Below are positions 15,234 to 25,069 of a DNA stretch of 64,000 bases, piece after piece; the first letter of the stretch is position 1, and each line of letters begins with the position of its first letter. The position numbers and the translations under genes were made by a program. A model generated the notes under the pieces. The model saw only the letters and a list, made by a program, of their open reading frames with translations, made no database searches and was not told the DNA's origin. Location: NCBI GenBank assembly GCA_049968255.1, contig JBMFRB010000001.1:320001-384000 (forward strand). Direction: 5' to 3'. The stretch comes from Candidatus Sumerlaeaceae bacterium (GTDB lineage: Bacteria; Sumerlaeota; Sumerlaeia; Sumerlaeales; Sumerlaeaceae).

Positions 15234-17015
15234 TTACAACTGCTCGTAAAGCTCGACGAGCAGAGCGCGGCGGCTGGGGTGACGCAGCTTGTTCAGCGCC
15301 TTGGTTTCGATCTGACGCACACGCTCGCGCGTGACGTTGAAAATTGCGCCGACTTCTTCAAGTGTGCGCGGGAAATCGTTGTTTCCAATGCCGAAACGCA
15401 GGCGCAGGACTTTCTCTTCGCGATCGCTCAACGTGCGAAGAATTTCATCGATGCGCTGCGCTTTGAGCACCTGGGCAGCCTGATCAGCTGGATCAACGGC
15501 ATCCGGATCACTGATGAAATCACCAAAGGTGGAATCACCCTCGTCGCCGATTGGTGTCTCGAGCGATATTGGCTGCTGCGCGATTTTTAGCACTCGGCGA
15601 ATCTTTTCTGCTGGCAAGCCCATGCGCTGAGCTAACTCGTCGGCCGTGGGCTCGCGCCCCAACTCTTGCACGAGTTGGCGGCTCGTGCGGGTGAGCTTGT
15701 TTATGGTCTCGATCATGTGAACGGGGATGCGGATTGTGCGCGCCTGATCTGCGATCGCACGCGTGACTGCCTGACGAATCCACCACGTTGCATAAGTGGA
15801 GAACTTGTAGCCGCGCTGATACTCGAATTTGTCCACGGCGCGCATAAGTCCGATATTGCCTTCTTGGATGAGATCGAGAAACTGGAGGCCGCGGTTTGTG
15901 TAGCGCTTTGCGATGGAAACCACCAAACGGAGGTTGGCCTCGACGACTTTTGTCTTCGCAGCACGAGCGATTTGCTCGCCGGCTTCGATTTCCTTCACGA
16001 TGACAGCAAGCTCGTCGAAGGTATTGCCCGCTTCCTTTTCCAGTTTTTTTACCGTGCGCTGGGCTTCGCGGACACGTTTGTCGAGTTTGATAAGCTCGTC
16101 GAGGGTAAGACCGTACTTTTTTTCTAGCGCCCTGGCCTCCGGCGAATTGCGGCGGGTTTTCTTGACGATGCGGCGCAGGTCGTCCTCGCTGAGCATGGTG
16201 CTCATGACGACTTCACGAATCTGATTGTTCGCTTCTTCGATCTGCCGATAAACTTCTTTGATGTGCGTGGCAATCTCCTCGATGACCGTGAAATTCAGGT
16301 CAATGGCAAGTAGGTGATCGAGGATTTCGCGGCGGCATTTCTCAATCTGTTTGTGAAGGGTGGATCGTTTTCGCTCCGAGAGCTCAGGATCCTCGAGCTG
16401 ATCCAAGAGGGCAAAAATCTGCGCGTAGTGGTCGAGAATTTTGTCGACGTTATCCAGCACATGATGCATGTAGCGTTGCCGGACCTCGGGATCCGACTCA
16501 TCAATGTGTGGGCGGAGAATGTCATCGAGATTGACCGCGCCGGATTCGACACGCGTGCGAAGTTTGCGCAACTCGTTGGCGGTAGCGCTGGCGCGGGCGA
16601 TGGCTGCGGTGATTTCGTGTCGGCCTTTCTCAATCTCTTTCGCAAGCGCCACTTCTTCATCGCGAGTGAGAAGCGGGACCTTGCCCATTTCCATGAGGTA
16701 GAGTCGGACTGGGTCGTCTATCTTGGCTCCGTCGCCGTCCTCATCGTGCACTCCATCTAATTCAATGGGCTTGTTTGGATCGAGTTCCTCCTCCAACTCC
16801 TCCGCAGCACGAGCCACTCCTGCGGCAATATCCTTGTCGTCGTAGACCTCGATATCGAGCTGTTCGAGCTCCTCGAGCAACGATTCCATATCCTGAACCG
16901 TGGCGTCCTCGGGAAGACTATCGTAGATCTCGTCGTAGGTCAGGTGCCCCCGCTCCCTCCCCAGGTCAATCAAGCTTGCAAGATCATTCGAACGTGAACT
17001 ACGTCCTGGTTTCAT
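15234..17015 (-). CDS. rpoD: RNA polymerase primary sigma factor (regions 1.1, 1.2, long non-conserved region, 2-4)
   Basis: [74 protein letters not shown]. Confidence 0.98.
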
Positions 17016-17495
17016 ACTGATGCTCAGCCCCTTTGCTCAGAAAATTTCTCTCATCTTTGCTTTCGGTGCCCCTTAGGCTGTTTCTTGAGAAATAAAGTAT
17101 TCCCTCACCTCCTTACTCTCTAAGTCGGAGAGAGGTCAGCATAGGACATGGCCGCGCACGAAATTTTCTCCTCTTGCTCGAACTGGGGGAAATTCATCAA
17201 TCTAGGTCGCGTAGCTGGCCTGGACGGCAAAGGTTTCACTCCTCTTTCCAGAGGTTCTGTGGTGATTTTTTTCTAGCAACACGCTTGGCGTTTTTCGCGC
17301 CGAAAAACCCATCCACAAACACATGGCGCATTCGGAAATCTTCTCTTGATTTCCTTTTTTCACGCTTGCTCAAATACGTTTTTGCGTGATGGCTTATTCA
17401 TTATCCCTGGCTTGCATGGCGCTTTCTCAGAATCGTTTGCATGTGTTACACAGAATCGAGTTTCATCCCTTGTTGCGCAATGAGGAGCGAAGCGC

Positions 17496-19412
17496 GTGAG
17501 ACGACCCGTAGTATTCCTTGCCAATCACAGCGTTCCCAAGCCTGTGCGCGAGCGATTTCTCCGCGGACTCAGGCAAGCAGGCTTCGAGCCCAAGCCATTC
17601 GTTGCTGATCCACTTCAACGCTGCCACGCGCTGCTCGAGTTTCTCCGCCACGCAGAAAAAGACTGCATTGCCCTCTTTGTGTGCTTGGATACGTCCGAGG
17701 CCATGTTAGCGCGCATTGTGGCGGGACACGCGCAAGGGCCGGTCTATGCTGTGTTGCAAGCGACCGACGGCGAAAAGCTCGTGCTTCCCCGGGAAGAGCT
17801 TGCCCCTGCTCCGTACGCCACAGTTGTGCCCTCAACTCCTGAAGCCCTGATCAGTTACCTGACGAAAATTTCTGTATCTTCGACGACTGAGACGAATAAA
17901 ACTCGTGCCGAGGTGGGGGGTTCGCCAGCTCATGCGGAAAGAGCGCCTTCGGTCACAGGGCGAAGAACGTTCAGCGAGGAAGACGCAGAATGGTTGGCGC
18001 GTCTCGCAAGCGATTTTCGGCCTCGTTTGCGCGAAGAAATTCGGCAACCTCTAAATGTCGCGAAGCAGGCCTCGCTAGACTTTTCGCACGAACTGCGGCA
18101 GATTATCTCACACGCGCGCAACCTTGCCGAGCGGCGGCGAGATGAGTTCGTCACGCCCCTGCATTATCTGGCCGCTATTGCGGGTTTTCCGGAGTGCGCA
18201 GGATATGAGCTCTTGCAGGAAATGGGCGTAGCCCTTGAAACTTTGGTGGAGCGAGTCCTAGCATCGCTTCCACCGGCGGAGGCGCCAGCACCTTGCACGT
18301 TCGCGCCGAGCGAAGAAGCTACAGCACTCGTGGCCTGCTCGAAACGCGTTGCCCGCCAGCGAAACCGGCGTGCACTCACGACGGTGGACCTTGTCGAGGG
18401 CATGGCGCAGCAAACCGAGTCGTTGGCTGCTACCATTCTTGCGGAATTTGGCGCCACGGCGGAGATGATCGCTGCGCGATTGGCAGAATTATCGATTCGC
18501 GAGGAGCAGCCGCCTGAAGAAGCGGATTCGGGAAAAAGCCCCGCTCCCCTTCCGGTTATTGACGCGGAAAAGGTTCGCCAGCTTGAGCGCAAATTCGTAG
18601 CAACACAGCGTGTACCGGTGGAGCAAGGCGATGCGACGAAGATCCCTGAGCAGGTGAGCCCACCCAAGGCCGAGCCTCTTTCTCATGACGCAACCGAAGT
18701 CGTCTCGGTTTTGAAAAGCCCGAATCAACCGGAGGACATCGATTTGGTAGGCGAACGAAAAACGCCGTTGGTGCTAAAGTGTGATCCGCAAAATCCGCCG
18801 TTGGAGGTGGTAGAAGAAGCAGCGGATTCACTGCTTGAGGGGAAGCTTGTGGCCTTCCCTACGGAGACCGTTTATGGGCTAGGAGTAGACGCCACAAATT
18901 TGTCCGCTCTCGAACGGCTTTATGAGGTGAAAGGGCGAGAACGCACACGAGCGATAGCTTTGCTCATTCACTCAATTTCGCAATTGCGCTACGTCGTGAG
19001 GGATATCCCCGAGGGGGTTCACGCGTTGATGGAGCAGTTCTGGCCGGGTCCGCTGACCATTGTTTTCCGGCGACATCCAAACGTGTTCGCTTCGCTTGCA
19101 CCGGACGACTCGATTGGCATCCGGATGCCAGATCATTATGTGGCCCTTGCGATTCTGAGCATGGTCGGGCGCCCCATCGCGACGACGAGTGCAAACCTAA
19201 GCGGCCAGGCACCAGCCCGCGAGGCGAGTGAGATCCTGGCGCAGCTCGGAACAAACGTCGACGTTATCGTGGATGCCGGGCGAAGCGGAGACCAGCCCGC
19301 TTCGACGGTGCTCTCTGTCATTGAGAAACCTTACCGCATTCTGCGCCCGGGGCCCATTACGGCCGCGCAAATTGAGGAGGTCGCGAGAGTCCCTGTTGTG
19401 AAAGAGCCCTAG
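17496..19412 (+). CDS. tsaC: Threonylcarbamoyl-AMP synthase (TsaC/YrdC) fused to N-terminal PurE-like and Clp-N domains
   Basis: C-terminal ~210 aa: VAFPTETVYGLG, KGR, FWPGPLT, IGIRMPDH, TTSANLSG, ASTV, ILRPG. Middle: double Clp-N pattern. N-terminal ~125 aa resemble PurE by eye. SD GAGGAG before GTG 17496. Confidence 0.88.
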   Translation: MRRPVVFLANHSVPKPVRERFLRGLRQAGFEPKPFVADPLQRCHALLEFLRHAEKDCIALFVCLDTSEAMLARIVAGHAQGPVYAVLQATDGEKLVLPREELAPAPYATVVPSTPEALISYLTKISVSSTTETNKTRAEVGGSPAHAERAPSVTGRRTFSEEDAEWLARLASDFRPRLREEIRQPLNVAKQASLDFSHELRQIISHARNLAERRRDEFVTPLHYLAAIAGFPECAGYELLQEMGVALETLVERVLASLPPAEAPAPCTFAPSEEATALVACSKRVARQRNRRALTTVDLVEGMAQQTESLAATILAEFGATAEMIAARLAELSIREEQPPEEADSGKSPAPLPVIDAEKVRQLERKFVATQRVPVEQGDATKIPEQVSPPKAEPLSHDATEVVSVLKSPNQPEDIDLVGERKTPLVLKCDPQNPPLEVVEEAADSLLEGKLVAFPTETVYGLGVDATNLSALERLYEVKGRERTRAIALLIHSISQLRYVVRDIPEGVHALMEQFWPGPLTIVFRRHPNVFASLAPDDSIGIRMPDHYVALAILSMVGRPIATTSANLSGQAPAREASEILAQLGTNVDVIVDAGRSGDQPASTVLSVIEKPYRILRPGPITAAQIEEVARVPVVKEP

Positions 19413-20569
19413 CCATCCGCATGGTCTGCGCTCAGCAACTTGCGGTAGAGTTGGAGGGTTCGCTCGGCACGGTGGCGCTCGGTAAACTGAGAAACGATTT
19501 TTTTGCGCGCAGCCTCGCCCATCTGGGCTGCCCGTTGTGGTTGCCCAAGGACTTCGATGAGCGCGCGACTTAGGCCGTCGACGTCGTTTTCCTCCACGAG
19601 GAGGCCATCCACACCGTGGGTGATCGTGTCGATAAGCGCCCCTTTGCGCACAGCAATGACGGGGCGCGAGGTTGCCATGGTCTCGAGCGCCGCACGGGCG
19701 CTTCCTTCGCTACCGAGGCCGAGAAGAAGCCCTGCATCCATGGCCGAATAGGTATCGGGCAAATCGTCCGTGCGATAGCCTGCCAGCACGACCCGCCTGC
19801 GATAACGCGGTTTGCGTAATTCTTGGCGAAGAAAATCACGCAGCTCACCTTGGCCGACAATCCAGATGACCGCGTTGGGAACAGCGTCAAGTGCTGAGGG
19901 CGCGGCGGCCAGCAACCATTGAATCCCACGATTATATCCAAGATGCGCAACGAGGCCTGCCACCATGGCATCGGGTTTCTCGCCCATGTCCGCGCGAACA
20001 CGGCGGCGGCCTTCCGGGTTGAAGCAAAAGCGGTCCGGATCTACACCTCCAAAAATGAGTTCAATTGGAACACCGCGATAAGCTTGGCGCAGCAGCTCGC
20101 GTTGGGGGCTCGACACCGTGATGACCGCCGCGGTTGCCTTGCTGAAAAGCCACTGGTGAAATGGATCGCGACGCAAACTCTCGTAGCGATGATAGGTGCG
20201 GATGACGAGTGGACGGCGCTGTCTGATGCCACGCATAGCAATGGCTGCAACCCAGTGATCGTGTGGGAGATGCGTGTGAATGATATCGATCCGACGGGTT
20301 ACACAGAATTCGCGCAACTTGAGAAGAAGCTGCCATTGCGTGCGCGGACTGTAATCTAGAGAAAGTGGGATCTCGCGGGCGAGTCGAACTCCTCGGCTGC
20401 TCGCGACCTCTTCAAATGAACGCCCCAAGATTCCCCCCACCCATGTTTCGCATCCCATCCGCTGTTGCCAATACGCGAGGCTGACAGCAGGTTCGGCAAC
20501 CCCGGTCCAGCGATACGTGGACATGAGATGCAAGATACGAAGCGGCTGTTGAAATGCATGTGATTGCAT
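19409..20569 (-). CDS. GT-B glycosyltransferase family 4
   Basis: LRILHL, DIIHTH, GVDPDRF, IVGQG, EGSARAALETMATSRPVIA, DGLLV; start ATG 20569 (or 20629). Confidence 0.9.
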   Translation of the reverse strand: MQSHAFQQPLRILHLMSTYRWTGVAEPAVSLAYWQQRMGCETWVGGILGRSFEEVASSRGVRLAREIPLSLDYSPRTQWQLLLKLREFCVTRRIDIIHTHLPHDHWVAAIAMRGIRQRRPLVIRTYHRYESLRRDPFHQWLFSKATAAVITVSSPQRELLRQAYRGVPIELIFGGVDPDRFCFNPEGRRRVRADMGEKPDAMVAGLVAHLGYNRGIQWLLAAAPSALDAVPNAVIWIVGQGELRDFLRQELRKPRYRRRVVLAGYRTDDLPDTYSAMDAGLLLGLGSEGSARAALETMATSRPVIAVRKGALIDTITHGVDGLLVEENDVDGLSRALIEVLGQPQRAAQMGEAARKKIVSQFTERHRAERTLQLYRKLLSADHADG

Positions 20570-20734
20570 GTCTCTAATTCGACTAACAGTGTGATGAGGT
20601 AGAGAGTTGCAAGGATGCAAATGAGACATAGAGATCGCCGGCTACGACGAGCGCACGAGAGACGACATCGGATTGCATTTAGCAAACACTCCGGGGGGGC
20701 ACATGATCCGGTGAGCGCTCATCGCTGCGCGACA

Positions 20735-23700
20735 ATGATCGCTCACATTGTACTCGGCATGGCAGTGGCCCTTTTCTGGGGAATCGGTCGAGGCTACGCA
20801 GCCAACGCTGCAGCGAAACCGGTGCCTGCGGCGGAAGCTCATCCGCTGGACCAAATTCCCAGGGATGCGAGCCTTGACGAATGGCTTACGGAAGCGGATG
20901 GCGTAATCCGCGGGCAGTTGGCCGAGCCGAAGGTAAAAGTCAAGACTCTGAAGGCCACTCCCCAGGAGCTGCGGTTCGAATTTAGTGTCGCCCCAGAAGC
21001 AGCGCGAGAGGGCAAAATTGTCATTCCGCTGGTCGTTCCACGTGGTGAGATGACGACCGCAATACTCGAACGAATTGACATCGACGGCAAAAGCACTTCC
21101 GAGGCCGCAACGCTTGGTTTGATTAAGGTAAAAGCGCAAGAACTTGGCTACATCCGCACGTTTCGCGTAGCGACGTTTTCTTTGAGTTTCGAACCACGTG
21201 GCCTTGGAGGGTGCGGGCTGCGTGGCGGCGTTGGGACAATCATGTTTGTTCCTCCTTCGCCGATCCGTGATTTGAGTGCAATCAAGTTCTGGGCTCGCAA
21301 TCGTGTGGGCATTTTCCGCAACCTTGTGCAAAAGCTTGTGGCAAATCCCTCGGACGTGGACCGTTATATCGTGGTGCCCGAACAGGCGATCCCACGAGCC
21401 ATTGCGCCGATAAGTTCCCCTCCACCGGAACTCGAGAAGTCGCCTTTTCGCATGCGTATTCGCGTGCGCACGCCGGGAATCTATCGCATCACGGCAAGCG
21501 ATCTCGAATCGTCTGGGGTGGTGGTGACATGGCTTGATCCGCACCATCTGCGCCTCTTCAATAACGGCCACGAGGTCCCCATGCTGCTGGTGCGTGGCGC
21601 CAACAGCGACGCTGCCACCATGCAGCCAGATGATCTGTTGCTTTTTTACGGCGCAGAAAACACTTCGCGGTTTTCCGCGGACAACGTCTACTGGCTTATT
21701 TACGATGAATCGCGGAGCGCCCAGGCAATGCCGCGAGCTCCCACAGCCGCGCCGACAGAGGTTTGCCAGAGCGCCTCGACCTTCCTGACGAAGACTGTCA
21801 TTGAACAGGACACGAAAGTGCTCACGCGCAGCGATCAGTTTCTCAGCATTCTGGGCTTTCGCTGGATTTGGCATGAAATTCCCACATCGGGCACGTTTAC
21901 CAGTACGTTTGACCTGCCAGGATTTCAACCAACAGGTCGAGCGCTTGCAACTGTGATGAATGTTTTTGTTCATGATCTGGGGCCGGCAACGAGCGTGACC
22001 ATCTGCCTGCGTCTCAACAACGGCGCTGTGCGGCGCTTCCCCTTGGCTTCTGAGCGCGACGAACGCAAAACTTTTACCATCCCTGAGCAAGAGATGCGGG
22101 CGCAGGGAAATCGTTTCGAGATCTGGCTTGAGGTTGAAGACCAGAAAGAAGGGTGCACCTTGCCAGTCGCCGGGACGCAGGCACCCGAAGTTTATTTGGA
22201 TAATTTTGAGATTTGGTATTCGCGTCCCTACTTTGTTGACACCTTGCCTGCCGAGGTGATGTCGCCCTACCGCGAGGACACGCACACACTTCGGCTGATG
22301 GAATACAATGTGGGACTCGCGAAACCGCAGCAGCGCATCTTCATCTTTGACGTAAGTGGACCCACGCCGCAAGTAGTTCCTACTAATATCAGAGAAACAA
22401 GTTCGGGACAGCACATTCTGAATTTCCGTGTACGCGAAGATTCCCCGCGCCGCTACATGATCACAACTCCGGAACAAGCGTTGGCGATTCGGTTCGAGCC
22501 AGCACCCACCTCAGCAGTGGACTTGCGCTCAACAGCGACGCAAGCAGATTACCTCATCATTGCGTATCCTGATTTCGTGGAGCCGATGAAAAAGTTCGCC
22601 CTCCGGAAAGAACGTGAGGGGCACAAGGTTCTGCTCGTGGATACGCAAACGATTTATGACCAGTTCGCCCATGGCCAAGAGACCCCCGAGGCGATCAAGC
22701 GCTTTATTGATTACGCAGCGCGCTATTATGATGCGCCAGCAGGACAACCGCCAGCGAGTTACGTGCTGTTGGTGGGCGACGCAACTAGCGCCTACAAGAA
22801 TGAATTCCACAACAACGTGGTGAATTACGTGCCATCCTTTACGATGAGCACGGACAGTCCCACAGGTGAACAGTGGGCGTCGGACCACTGGTACTCGCGG
22901 CTATTTGGGACGGACGATTTGGCGGACGTGTTCATCGGACGCTTGTCGGTAAACAATCGTAAAGACCTGGAAAACATCCTCGCAAAACTCGAAGATTACG
23001 AGAAACAACGCACCCAAAAGGCGGAGTGGCGAAGTCGCGTAGGCTTCGTAGCTGACCACACGGAGTTCGATGCCCCAACGCGGCGCGTGGCTGAGCTAAT
23101 GCCGCCCGCCTACACCATCACGCGCCTTTCGCTTTCCGAAGAGCCGTGGGAAGACAACTTCTACTTCCCCAGAGAGGTCACAGAAAGCAAAAAGGCAAAG
23201 GTCAGCCCGGAGATGACACGCAAGATCCGTGACCTGTTCAATGGAGGCGCGGCTGCGATTTTGTACTTCGGTCATGGCTCCCCCAATGTCTGGTCCACAC
23301 AGCGCATCTGGTTCGGTGGTGACAGCGAAAACTCCGATAATCTCATGCTAGGCAATCGCGACCGGCTGCCGGTGGTGCTGAATATGACCTGCAATAGCGG
23401 GGCGATTGATTATCCGCTGCCTCGCTGGAATGTATGCATCAGCGAGGATTTCCTGCGTGTACCCAATGGTGGTGCCATAGCATGCTACGTGCCGGCTGGG
23501 CCAGGGATGGCGAGCATTCACGAGATTTTCTCGCGTGAGCTGGTACGCTCGCTTTTTGCTGAACGCATGGAGCCATTGGGACCAGCGCTCATCCTAGCGA
23601 CATACCGCTATCTGGCCGAGGGCAATCCACCAGATTTAGTGCGAATGTTCATTTTGCTGGGCGACCCGAGCATGCAATCCGCTATCGAAGCAAAGGGGGG

Positions 23701-25069
23701 AATGTTTGCAACTGGTCTTGGGAGCGCGAAAGATCTCAGTGTGCGGAGAAGTGCCGCGATGGTGTCCCCTTCGCGCGATGGTCAAACAACCGTCACCATA
23801 TCTCTCGACGTTTTCAACACTTCAGAAAAGCCAATCCGCGATGCTGTCTTCAATGTGACGGGCAACGGTTTCTCTGCGGAAAGTGACGCACTTTGCTTTC
23901 TGCCGCGAGAAAAGCGCGAGGTTGTGATCACCGGGCAGTCTGGCCCCGGAATAACTTCGGTGACTATCAGCGCGCGTTCCTACGGTTGCGAAAGAGATAT
24001 CCCTCTCGAATTACCGGAACCAGTGGCGATTGTCGTGGGCGGCGAAGAAACATCGGCCCCGCTGCGAGTGGTGCCTGGATCTCTTCAGGTTCGGCACACA
24101 GCACAACCTTACTCGGCCGAATTATCGCTCACCGTGGCAAACGTGGGGAAAGCGAAGATCGCCAACCTGCGCGCAATGCTGGTAACAAGTCAGACGCTGG
24201 TCCAAGAATCGCTCACAACTCTACCTCTCCTTTCGCCGGGTGAGAGCCGCCGTATCGAGCTACGGCGGACGTACATTGAATTTCCGGAACGCGAAGAGAC
24301 CAACCTCGTGATCGAAGGCGAATCGGAAGAAAGCAGCCTACGCGTGTCGCTGCAAATGCCAGTGCTCTTAGGCAAAGAAGCGATGGCCGATCTCATCATT
24401 CCCGAAGGCGGCATTATGCCCCATAAGGCACCGGTGGTCGAAGGCGAAACTGTATTTTTCCGCGTGGTGGTGGAAAACATCGGCAATTCGGTGGCGCGTA
24501 ACGTCCGTGTGGATGGTTACGACGGCACAACGACGGGCGCGATGCCTTTGCAGTCGCGAGTGCTACGGCCTTATGAGCCTGTTGACATTGCTCCCCATGG
24601 ACGGGCTGTTTTCACAGTTCGGTGGGATCCCACGCGCAACGCTGGAGTTCACGATTTTCTTTTCCGCACATGGTGCAGCAGCATTGATGCCGAACGCCGC
24701 ATGGATAACAATGAGCGGGTTGTGCGGATGAAAGTGCTAACAAAATCTCGATTACGTCCGTTGGGTGTATCCGTCCTTCCTCTTACGGAAGAAGATCGCC
24801 AGAAGCGTCAACTTCGCCTGCTCGTGCGAATCGCCAATGATGGTGAAGGCCCCGCCCATGGCGTGCGGGTCGTCGTTTATGCGGACCGGCGCACACACGA
24901 CCGAAACGCTGTCTTGGCTGACGATCTCATCGAGGCAATCCAAGGCAAGCAAGTCGTCGAGAGAAGCTTGACCTATCGTTTGAAGGAGGAAGATCGAGGG
25001 CGACGGATCGAGCCGTGGTGCGAGGTTTTCCTCAAGGGATCCCTGCAGCGGGTGCCATGGCCGGAATGA
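20735..25069 (+). CDS. Large secreted C25 (gingipain/PorU-like) cysteine peptidase with C-terminal CARDB-like Ig domains
   Basis: Hydrophobic signal from ATG 20735; PGIYRIT...DPHHLRLFNNGHEVP...LLFYG...DNVYWL; ADYLIIA, IYDQF, YVLLVGDA, SDHWY, FIGRL, YFGHGS (His), MTCNSG (Cys), ILLGDP; CARDB-like VVVENIG and RMDNNE. Confidence 0.85.
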   Translation: MIAHIVLGMAVALFWGIGRGYAANAAAKPVPAAEAHPLDQIPRDASLDEWLTEADGVIRGQLAEPKVKVKTLKATPQELRFEFSVAPEAAREGKIVIPLVVPRGEMTTAILERIDIDGKSTSEAATLGLIKVKAQELGYIRTFRVATFSLSFEPRGLGGCGLRGGVGTIMFVPPSPIRDLSAIKFWARNRVGIFRNLVQKLVANPSDVDRYIVVPEQAIPRAIAPISSPPPELEKSPFRMRIRVRTPGIYRITASDLESSGVVVTWLDPHHLRLFNNGHEVPMLLVRGANSDAATMQPDDLLLFYGAENTSRFSADNVYWLIYDESRSAQAMPRAPTAAPTEVCQSASTFLTKTVIEQDTKVLTRSDQFLSILGFRWIWHEIPTSGTFTSTFDLPGFQPTGRALATVMNVFVHDLGPATSVTICLRLNNGAVRRFPLASERDERKTFTIPEQEMRAQGNRFEIWLEVEDQKEGCTLPVAGTQAPEVYLDNFEIWYSRPYFVDTLPAEVMSPYREDTHTLRLMEYNVGLAKPQQRIFIFDVSGPTPQVVPTNIRETSSGQHILNFRVREDSPRRYMITTPEQALAIRFEPAPTSAVDLRSTATQADYLIIAYPDFVEPMKKFALRKEREGHKVLLVDTQTIYDQFAHGQETPEAIKRFIDYAARYYDAPAGQPPASYVLLVGDATSAYKNEFHNNVVNYVPSFTMSTDSPTGEQWASDHWYSRLFGTDDLADVFIGRLSVNNRKDLENILAKLEDYEKQRTQKAEWRSRVGFVADHTEFDAPTRRVAELMPPAYTITRLSLSEEPWEDNFYFPREVTESKKAKVSPEMTRKIRDLFNGGAAAILYFGHGSPNVWSTQRIWFGGDSENSDNLMLGNRDRLPVVLNMTCNSGAIDYPLPRWNVCISEDFLRVPNGGAIACYVPAGPGMASIHEIFSRELVRSLFAERMEPLGPALILATYRYLAEGNPPDLVRMFILLGDPSMQSAIEAKGGMFATGLGSAKDLSVRRSAAMVSPSRDGQTTVTISLDVFNTSEKPIRDAVFNVTGNGFSAESDALCFLPREKREVVITGQSGPGITSVTISARSYGCERDIPLELPEPVAIVVGGEETSAPLRVVPGSLQVRHTAQPYSAELSLTVANVGKAKIANLRAMLVTSQTLVQESLTTLPLLSPGESRRIELRRTYIEFPEREETNLVIEGESEESSLRVSLQMPVLLGKEAMADLIIPEGGIMPHKAPVVEGETVFFRVVVENIGNSVARNVRVDGYDGTTTGAMPLQSRVLRPYEPVDIAPHGRAVFTVRWDPTRNAGVHDFLFRTWCSSIDAERRMDNNERVVRMKVLTKSRLRPLGVSVLPLTEEDRQKRQLRLLVRIANDGEGPAHGVRVVVYADRRTHDRNAVLADDLIEAIQGKQVVERSLTYRLKEEDRGRRIEPWCEVFLKGSLQRVPWPE

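Follow-up and report, generated by a model that had tools for sequence, protein, structure and literature searches.

The TsaC/Sua5 enzymes, which make the threonylcarbamoyl-AMP (TC-AMP) required for the tRNA modification N6-threonylcarbamoyladenosine (t6A), are universal and usually essential where tested. They are defined by the motifs PTET and PGPLT and by a K-x-R ... S-x-N tetrad, and the catalytic domain normally occurs alone or with a SUA5 domain. A YrdC-like adenylate-forming domain also occurs in multidomain carbamoyltransferases of the HypF and TobZ type, where its partner is the Kae1-like transferase domain that receives the adenylate. The gene described here lies in a window of 64,000 nucleotides of Candidatus Sumerlaeaceae bacterium (assembly GCA_049968255.1, contig JBMFRB010000001.1, positions 320,001 to 384,000). 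At 17496..19412 of the plus strand it encodes, in 638 codons plus a stop, a protein with three domains: a relic of PurE, a Clp_N domain and a TsaC domain. The protein shares with HypF, of which the genome holds an example of its own, the placement of the adenylate-forming domain in a multidomain chain; its partners, however, are an apparently dead PurE and a Clp_N domain, with no known catalytic hand-over. A first-pass annotation of the sequence had named the same three parts (degenerate PurE-like, Clp-N and TsaC), and this identification is confirmed by Pfam, NCBIfam and fold searches.

The TsaC/YrdC catalytic domain, of the Sua5 N-domain type, occupies residues 422-638 (18759..19409, plus strand). 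PF01300 (Sua5_yciO_yrdC) matches residues 446-619 with an E-value of 5.5e-54 (182.8 bits vs a cut-off of 25.1), and the NCBIfam equivalog TIGR00057, L-threonylcarbamoyladenylate synthase, scores 192.3 bits against a cut-off of 123.2. The motifs PTETVYG (455), K479-G-R481, WPGPLT (516) and S565-A-N567 are all intact. Residues 422-638 correspond end to end to the catalytic domain of solved Sua5 proteins (2eqa from Sulfolobus tokodaii and 9d3h; E ~1e-38, with K-x-R and S-A-N in register) and of E. coli YrdC/TsaC (1hru; E 1.5e-22). Unlike these enzymes, the window protein has no SUA5 C-terminal domain and carries about 420 extra N-terminal residues, which form two folded domains. Sua5_C (PF03481) has no match across the whole genome carrying the window (G000), so that motif alignment and profile scan together uphold the earlier description of an intact TsaC core without the Sua5 C-terminal domain. 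An NCBIfam match to LarB (E 0.14, residues 561-598) falls inside the TsaC domain and was rejected as noise. In the ESM Atlas, the 638-aa protein finds no usable match by features and, by structure, TsaC/Sua5 clusters only. Other TsaC/Sua5 fusions are present there in Bacillota, namely a cluster of 116 members joining Sua5, a low-molecular-weight (LMW) phosphatase and Sua5_C, and two clusters of Sua5 with RpiB (50 and 69 members).

Besides the window gene, the only PF01300 gene in G000 encodes an 833-aa HypF, and the relatives G002 and G006 likewise have none except hypF. The t6A partners TsaD and TsaE, as well as a TsaB-like gene, are present in G000. The genome check proposed with the first-pass annotation thus turns up no second tsaC or sua5, and it shows that a stand-alone purE (203 bits) lies elsewhere in G000 and that mcsB is present. 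Since the window's genus has no other TsaC, the window protein is probably the organism's working TC-AMP synthase, in which the PurE relic and Clp_N would be inherited, non-catalytic parts of a fusion. We infer that the TsaC domain is active and that the other two domains persist as non-catalytic structural or partner-binding modules. In this scheme, the C-terminal domain would convert threonine, bicarbonate/CO2 and ATP into TC-AMP, and TsaD, TsaB and TsaE would transfer the TC-AMP moiety to A37 of tRNAs.

The N-terminal domain (residues 1-128; 17496..17879, plus strand) has a PurE fold derived from the AIRC family. The Pfam model AIRC (PF00731) gives it only 11.9 bits (E 0.17), below the 30-bit gathering cut-off. 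In a first set of orthologous N-domains, five of nine match at E<=10 and two exceed the cut-off (34.1 and 30.2 bits), with a range of 20-34 bits; in a second set, 12 of 25 match at E<=0.01 and six exceed it (38-180 bits), with a range of 17-179.6 bits. Because these orthologues match AIRC, the window domain is homologous to PurE by transitivity. An AlphaFold model of residues 1-130 alone (predicted local distance difference test, pLDDT, 81.3; predicted template modelling score, pTM, 0.77) places PurE first: the best VIA-align match is PurE 3rg8 (Z 16.5, rmsd 2.2, 126 aligned), followed by PAICS 4ja0 (Z 16.0), PurE 3lp6 (Z 13.6) and LarB 7mj0 (Z 12.2), the fold being the same over 124-129 residues, while generic flavodoxin-like folds reach at most 11.2. 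With Foldseek, every match listed is PurE, PAICS or LarB (E ~1e-5). The degenerate PurE that had been recognised by eye at residues ~1-125 is thus borne out, and the objection that this region might have no structural similarity to PurE falls away.

Regarding the active site, the motifs of PurE enzymes are GSxSD, SAHR(T)P and GAGGAAHLPG. In the window protein, LANHS, VADPLQ and CLDTSEAM stand where GSxSD, SAHRTP and GAGGAAHL would be expected, and the motif table of relatives agrees with the loss reported in the first-pass annotation. Furthermore, the structural match to 3rg8 ends at its residue 132 of 155 and the window domain ends near residues 128-136, which means that the C-terminal helices of PurE are missing; in PurE these helices help to build the octamer. 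A complex prediction with four copies of the N-domain, run without controls, stayed below its mark of 0.42 (scores of 0.13 and 0.00) and bears on oligomerisation neither way. The best reading of these features is that the PurE relic is not an enzyme. The stand-alone PurE of G000, like the intact fused PurE of relatives, carries what we take to be class-I-type motifs. A second AIRC match in G000 is LarB, and the 403-aa open reading frame (ORF) adjoining it was read by eye as larC. No purK lies above the cut-off in G000, where the best match to TIGR01161 reaches 33.7 bits vs 318.4, in a 468-aa frame.

Between the two enzyme-derived domains lies a double Clp_N repeat (residues 195-335; 18078..18500, plus strand), made of two four-helix halves with no AAA+ module attached. 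PF02861 (Clp_N) scores 36.1 bits vs a cut-off of 20.7, in two stretches, and the NCBIfam models of the ClpA and ClpB N termini align to residues 197-341. In the full-length model this region folds into eight helices (pLDDT >90), four of them at 198-257 and four at 273-331. Among solved structures the best sequence match is ClpC2 9p2p (E 1.2e-5), and Hsp104-N, ClpC1-N and ClpB-N are also matched; the N domain of G000's own Clp ATPase aligns in gapless BLASTP with 25% identity (E 1e-13). The double four-helix repeat is shared with the N domains of ClpC, ClpB and Hsp104 and with the N-domain-like mycobacterial protein ClpC2 (9p2p). In contrast to ClpC, ClpB and Hsp104, the window Clp_N is followed by no AAA+ ATPase, has its pocket glutamates replaced and is set between two enzyme-derived domains. 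Pfam and NCBIfam scans find no AAA family in the window protein. Its Clp_N domain is a true one, but by sequence the protein is no Clp ATPase. Ranking next among the matches to this domain are proteins with 6-11 tandem Clp_N repeats and no ATPase (P0022, P0026-P0028, P0030 and P0035), of which P0022 ends in a TIR domain.

The two glutamates of the phosphoarginine (pArg) pocket of ClpC are E32 and E106, according to PMC12583610. In the window protein, the residues aligned to the E of GPEH and GTEH in G000's own Clp ATPase are L222 and V297, so that both pocket positions are hydrophobic and the alteration of the GTEH motifs noted in the first-pass annotation is substantiated. The ClpC glutamates are presumably those of its GTEH motifs. 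Within the Clp_N fusions, T-E-H or P-E-H is kept in repeat 1 by some basal members only, and in repeat 2 by none. The first-repeat motif of G000's Clp ATPase is itself the unusual G-P-E-H, and several fusion members have P-E-H at that place, a hint that the inserted Clp_N may be of local origin.

The full-length AlphaFold model, built on 32 sequences (pLDDT 83.7, pTM 0.44), consists of folded blocks at residues 1-128, 195-335 and 422-638, joined by disordered linkers at 131-156, 175-187 and 373-419. Mean pairwise identity among six relatives is 47% in the PurE relic and 56% in Clp_N vs 18-22% in the linkers. Because both domains are conserved well above the linkers, they appear to be kept for some role. 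The linkers also contain two conserved helices. The first is amphipathic (FSEEDAEWLxRLxxDFRPRLRE, residues 159-183, 17970..18044, plus strand; model helix 161-174) and has 66% mean identity vs 18% for the flanking linker among the six relatives. The second (IDxEqVxxLexkl, residues 350-371, 18543..18608, plus strand; model helix 357-371) can be aligned in 32 members. Both helices, which flank Clp_N, follow the pattern acidic-x-x-hydrophobic-x-x-L-x-x-x-F/L. A single helix of this kind, similar to the first, occurs in the two-domain fusions of family f12, and the Clp_N insertion may have duplicated it.

The wider distribution was followed in 75 species genomes of the phylum, 73 of which belong to one class; the family of the window (f1) accounts for 13 and the rest of the class for 60. 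The query was P0025, a Clp_N-fusion member with an intact PurE. Outside f1, at least 48 of the 60 class genomes hold PurE and TsaC parts in one open frame of 416-712 aa, and all 11 two-domain ORFs that were scanned consist of AIRC and PF01300 with no Clp_N. Both domains are present in each of the best 120 of 2583 database matches to one two-domain fusion; relatives that have a name are labelled Sumerlaeota, Sumerlaeia or BRC1, or plain 'bacterium'. These proteins are of the same lineage as the window protein and share its order of PurE, acidic linker and TsaC, f12 also sharing the linker helix. They differ in that their PurE is intact (up to 203 bits, and the sole PurE in several families) and Clp_N is absent, whereas the window protein has the Clp_N insert and a PurE of 11.9 bits. 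Since the PurE-TsaC fusion is nearly universal in the class, the PurE part is an evolutionary relic of it. The architecture is accordingly not an isolated oddity, being a family-specific elaboration of a fusion found in nearly all of the class, and descent from that fusion, instead of new recruitment as a carbamate or CO2 module, explains its PurE part. The concern that relatives might encode the parts separately applies to G074, from another class, where purE is followed by an adjacent, separate sua5 (324-aa frame) on the same strand, an arrangement that looks like the unfused precursor state; it does not apply to 12 of the 13 f1 genomes or to the 48 or more fusions elsewhere in the class. 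In G073, purE and sua5 are on different contigs. The possibility that Clp_N is hidden in the long-linker fusions (511-712-aa frames; f9, f11, f14) was rejected, as seven out of seven scanned have none at E<=0.1; a profile of residues 1-428 finds only Clp ATPases in the f9, f11 and f14 genomes.

The Clp_N insertion is confined to the window's family. The same profile is matched over its full length in 10 of the 13 genomes of f1; among the 60 class genomes of other families it has no such match and picks up nothing but N domains of Clp ATPases (~800-900 aa). Two further cases bring the total to 12 of 13: G001, with the fusion in two pieces, and G009, a weak case found by single sequence and by PF01300. 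A split gene in G001 was rejected, both pieces terminating at contig ends. No fusion gene was found in G005 (92% complete), which has a stand-alone Sua5 and PurE and for which the fusion seems dispensable. Among 1.84 billion representatives, the profile recovers 27 full-length clusters and then unrelated proteins of tandem Clp_N repeats. The fusion is not an assembly artefact, since it recurs in independent assemblies, including the single-contig genome G006.

Trees of the TsaC domain place all fused domains in one clade, with Shimodaira-Hasegawa-like approximate likelihood ratio (SH-aLRT) support of 90 (36 rows) and 100 (49 rows), and the stand-alone Sua5 proteins in another (95 and 100), so that the window TsaC is separated from the stand-alone Sua5 of its own phylum. 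The Clp_N fusions form one group inside the fused clade (SH-aLRT 89 with 12 rows, 95 with 25 rows), for which a single insertion is sufficient. The metagenomic protein P0025 (653 aa) combines Clp_N and TsaC with an intact class-I-type PurE (179.6 bits; GSGTD, SAHRSP, AGAGGAAHLPG), which indicates that the insertion came earlier than the decay of PurE. To judge from such intermediates, the relic is descended from a real PurE.

The extent of decay varies with the presence of stand-alone genes. Scores of 184-203 bits are seen for a fused PurE that is the sole PurE (f2, f10, f12, f15 and part of f7). Beside a stand-alone purE (~185-219 bits), the fused copy scores 135-181 bits in f9, f11, f14 and f16, and 72-117 bits in f6, f8, f13 and one f7 genome. 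Its score stays below 35 bits in those f1 genomes that were searched, and the metagenomic Clp_N fusions reach up to 179.6 bits. For the fused TsaC, the scores are 166-193 bits as the sole TsaC and 71-161 bits beside a Sua5 of ~320-430 aa. Within f1, eight genomes have Sua5 (G003, G004, G005, G007, G008, G010, G011 and G012), and in the seven of these that also have the fusion the K-x-R and S-x-N of the fused TsaC are lost and the branches are long. The window's genus (G000, G001, G002) and G006 have no Sua5, and their fused TsaC is intact on short branches. The branch length of the window protein is 0.04-0.05, while f1 members beside Sua5 have end branches of 0.13-2.28 under internal branches of 0.35-0.83. 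Of 32 aligned Clp_N fusions, nine keep both TsaC motifs, P0025 combines K-R-P with S-A-N, and the other 22 no longer have either motif, from which it follows that the fusion scaffold can persist without catalysis. The fused gene is moreover retained in lineages having both a separate purE and a separate sua5, and its maintenance where both activities are supplied elsewhere argues for a non-catalytic role.

The probable history behind this distribution begins with a class ancestor in which purE became fused to tsaC. In one family, the N domain of a ClpC-type protein was, in all likelihood, inserted once into the linker between PurE and TsaC. Once purine synthesis had probably passed to a separate purE gene, the fused PurE lost its active site while keeping its fold.

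Several points weigh against the window protein being the working synthase with inherited accessory domains. The 22 Clp_N fusions without K-x-R/S-x-N include its close relatives P0005, P0007 and P0015, and G000 is 95.75% complete, so that a second tsaC could sit in the missing part. The pTM of the full-length model means that the mutual arrangement of the domains is not confidently predicted. The fusion counts and gene-order comparisons were made by eye from tables, with contig and frame length matched, and the trees come from quick searches, with SH-aLRT values as their sole support and no bootstraps. Taken furthest, the loss of motifs would make the whole protein a catalytically idle regulator or adaptor, like what its paralogues in sister genera seem to be, with t6A either absent or the product of an enzyme that has escaped recognition. 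The retention of motif-less fusions in 22 of 32 cases and the complete loss of the fusion from G005 fit such a view; the window TsaC, however, has every motif, exceeds the equivalog cut-off and sits on a short branch, and G000, G002 and G006 have no PF01300 gene to replace it other than hypF. The motif-less paralogues coexist with a stand-alone Sua5 in all searched assemblies of at least 81% completeness, and TsaD, TsaB and TsaE are all present. An idle protein is on these grounds scarcely credible. It is very unlikely, though less far-fetched, that the PurE fold has been re-used as a sensor of a small molecule (a nucleotide, a ligand resembling aminoimidazole ribonucleotide, or CO2/bicarbonate) that controls TsaC allosterically. 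PurE and TsaC both handle N-carboxy (carbamate) chemistry, the relic is under purifying selection as seen from its identity relative to the linkers, and its SAHRTP loop is replaced in the window's subclade by a conserved KP(L/F)VADPxxR, with K33, P34, D38, P39 and R42 invariant in six out of six. This motif is nevertheless restricted to the closest subclade, more distant members having unrelated residues, and conservation may reflect folding or an interface alone.

A further proposal concerns Clp_N and would add to the reading of the protein as a working synthase rather than replace it. In G000, outside the window, the minus strand of contig 8 (L106 3398-7252) carries in head-to-tail order tsaD (434 aa), a UVR-motif mcsA-like gene (179 aa), mcsB (355 aa) and the gene for RNase PH (253 aa), with gaps of 90 and 18 nt between tsaD, the mcsA-like gene and mcsB. 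The tsaD-mcsA-mcsB order on one strand with small gaps was verified with Pfam in G000, G002, G003, G006 and G008 and by coordinates in G001; rph also adjoins it in G002. It thus occurs in six of the 13 f1 genomes and in none of the 62 other genomes. Outside f1, at least 22 genomes have mcsB and a Clp ATPase gene side by side, and within it none of the 13 does, counting Clp matches at E<=1e-15 only. According to PMC12583610, the ClpC N domain is a known reader of pArg and a contact of McsA/McsB. Clp_N could therefore be a docking module for McsA/McsB, binding McsB itself or pArg-bearing partners such as TsaD, through which stress or proteostasis would switch t6A synthesis. Beyond the gene orders, the resemblance of the fused Clp_N to the N domain of G000's Clp ATPase, which has GPEH/GTEH, speaks for this idea, as do the Sua5-LMW-phosphatase fusions of Bacillota. 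Against it stand the hydrophobic residues at both pocket positions and the restriction of T-E-H/P-E-H to repeat 1 of some basal members. The gene order is moreover circumstantial, the genomes being kin and seven of the 13 f1 genomes lacking the adjacency. We regard docking as unlikely, and as a tentative supplement at most.

The link to Clp and pArg proteostasis raised in the first-pass annotation accordingly gains circumstantial support only: mcsA-mcsB is present, and lies directly downstream of tsaD only in f1, but the pArg-pocket glutamates are lost. Its other suggestions, that the architecture oligomerises TsaC or senses a nucleotide or CO2, drew no support from the analyses. In its most extended form, the t6A pathway of f1 would have been wired to protein arginine phosphorylation: mcsA-mcsB would have left clpC for tsaD, the captured Clp_N would dock McsB or McsB-marked partners, and the dead paralogues retained alongside a normal Sua5 and PurE would act as adaptors or regulators. 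This extension is distinctly improbable; if it were true, a stress-signalling kinase would regulate t6A synthesis as one of its outputs, and Bacillota would show, in their Sua5-LMW-phosphatase fusions, an independent echo of a link between t6A and arginine phosphorylation. Three LMW phosphatase (PF01451) genes are present in G000, on contigs 2, 4 and 9, none near the window gene. In many lineages including f1, TsaD (frames of 373-1063 aa) matches its Pfam profile in two pieces, the break lying close to profile position 100; in the rest of the phylum the match is in one piece and the frames are mostly ~340-465 aa. This suggests an insertion in the TsaD of many Sumerlaeota lineages.

As an enzyme the protein is ordinary, unlike the phylum-wide fusion, the stepwise decay of that fusion to pseudoenzyme scaffolds and the linkage of mcsAB to tsaD. 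Literature searches returned no description of the two- or three-domain fusion, subscription journals and supplements lying outside their scope and the name PurE being nearly useless for searching, since it also matches the common English word 'pure'. Both architectures are already present in sequence databases under routine names, the PurE-TsaC fusions being called 'N5-CAIR mutase' or 'threonylcarbamoyl-AMP synthase' almost at random, and either may be a misnomer in a particular lineage. Of the first-pass annotation's doubt that the architecture might be common and characterised, the former is true of the two-domain form in the class, while no characterisation was found in these searches. From adjacent genes through a bifunctional fusion and the Clp_N insertion to the loss of one activity or of both after stand-alone genes have appeared, the Sumerlaeota series is an unusually complete natural record of a fusion enzyme becoming a pseudoenzyme scaffold. 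It also offers the t6A field a concrete protein for experiments on how the pathway is regulated or assembled.

The 638-aa ORF starts with GTG, the same start being found in an alignment of five relatives, and a Shine-Dalgarno-like GAGGAG, read from the sequence, lies 8 nt before it (17482..17487, plus strand). The spacer on its 5' side is 480 nt long. An Rfam scan of 16900-19600 returned zero families at E<=1, and scans for promoters and terminators yielded no more than expected from shuffled sequence and no helpful signal within this upstream spacer. The neighbours are unrelated, and their orientations differ: upstream are genes for thioredoxin, hisA and rpoD, all on the minus strand, and downstream a convergent GT4 glycosyltransferase gene (minus strand), followed by a C25 peptidase gene. 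The latter (20615-25069, plus strand) encodes a protein of 1484 aa that combines a CARDB domain with a peptidase domain of the C25 (gingipain) type, and the start of its ORF overlaps that of the divergent glycosyltransferase gene by 15 nt.

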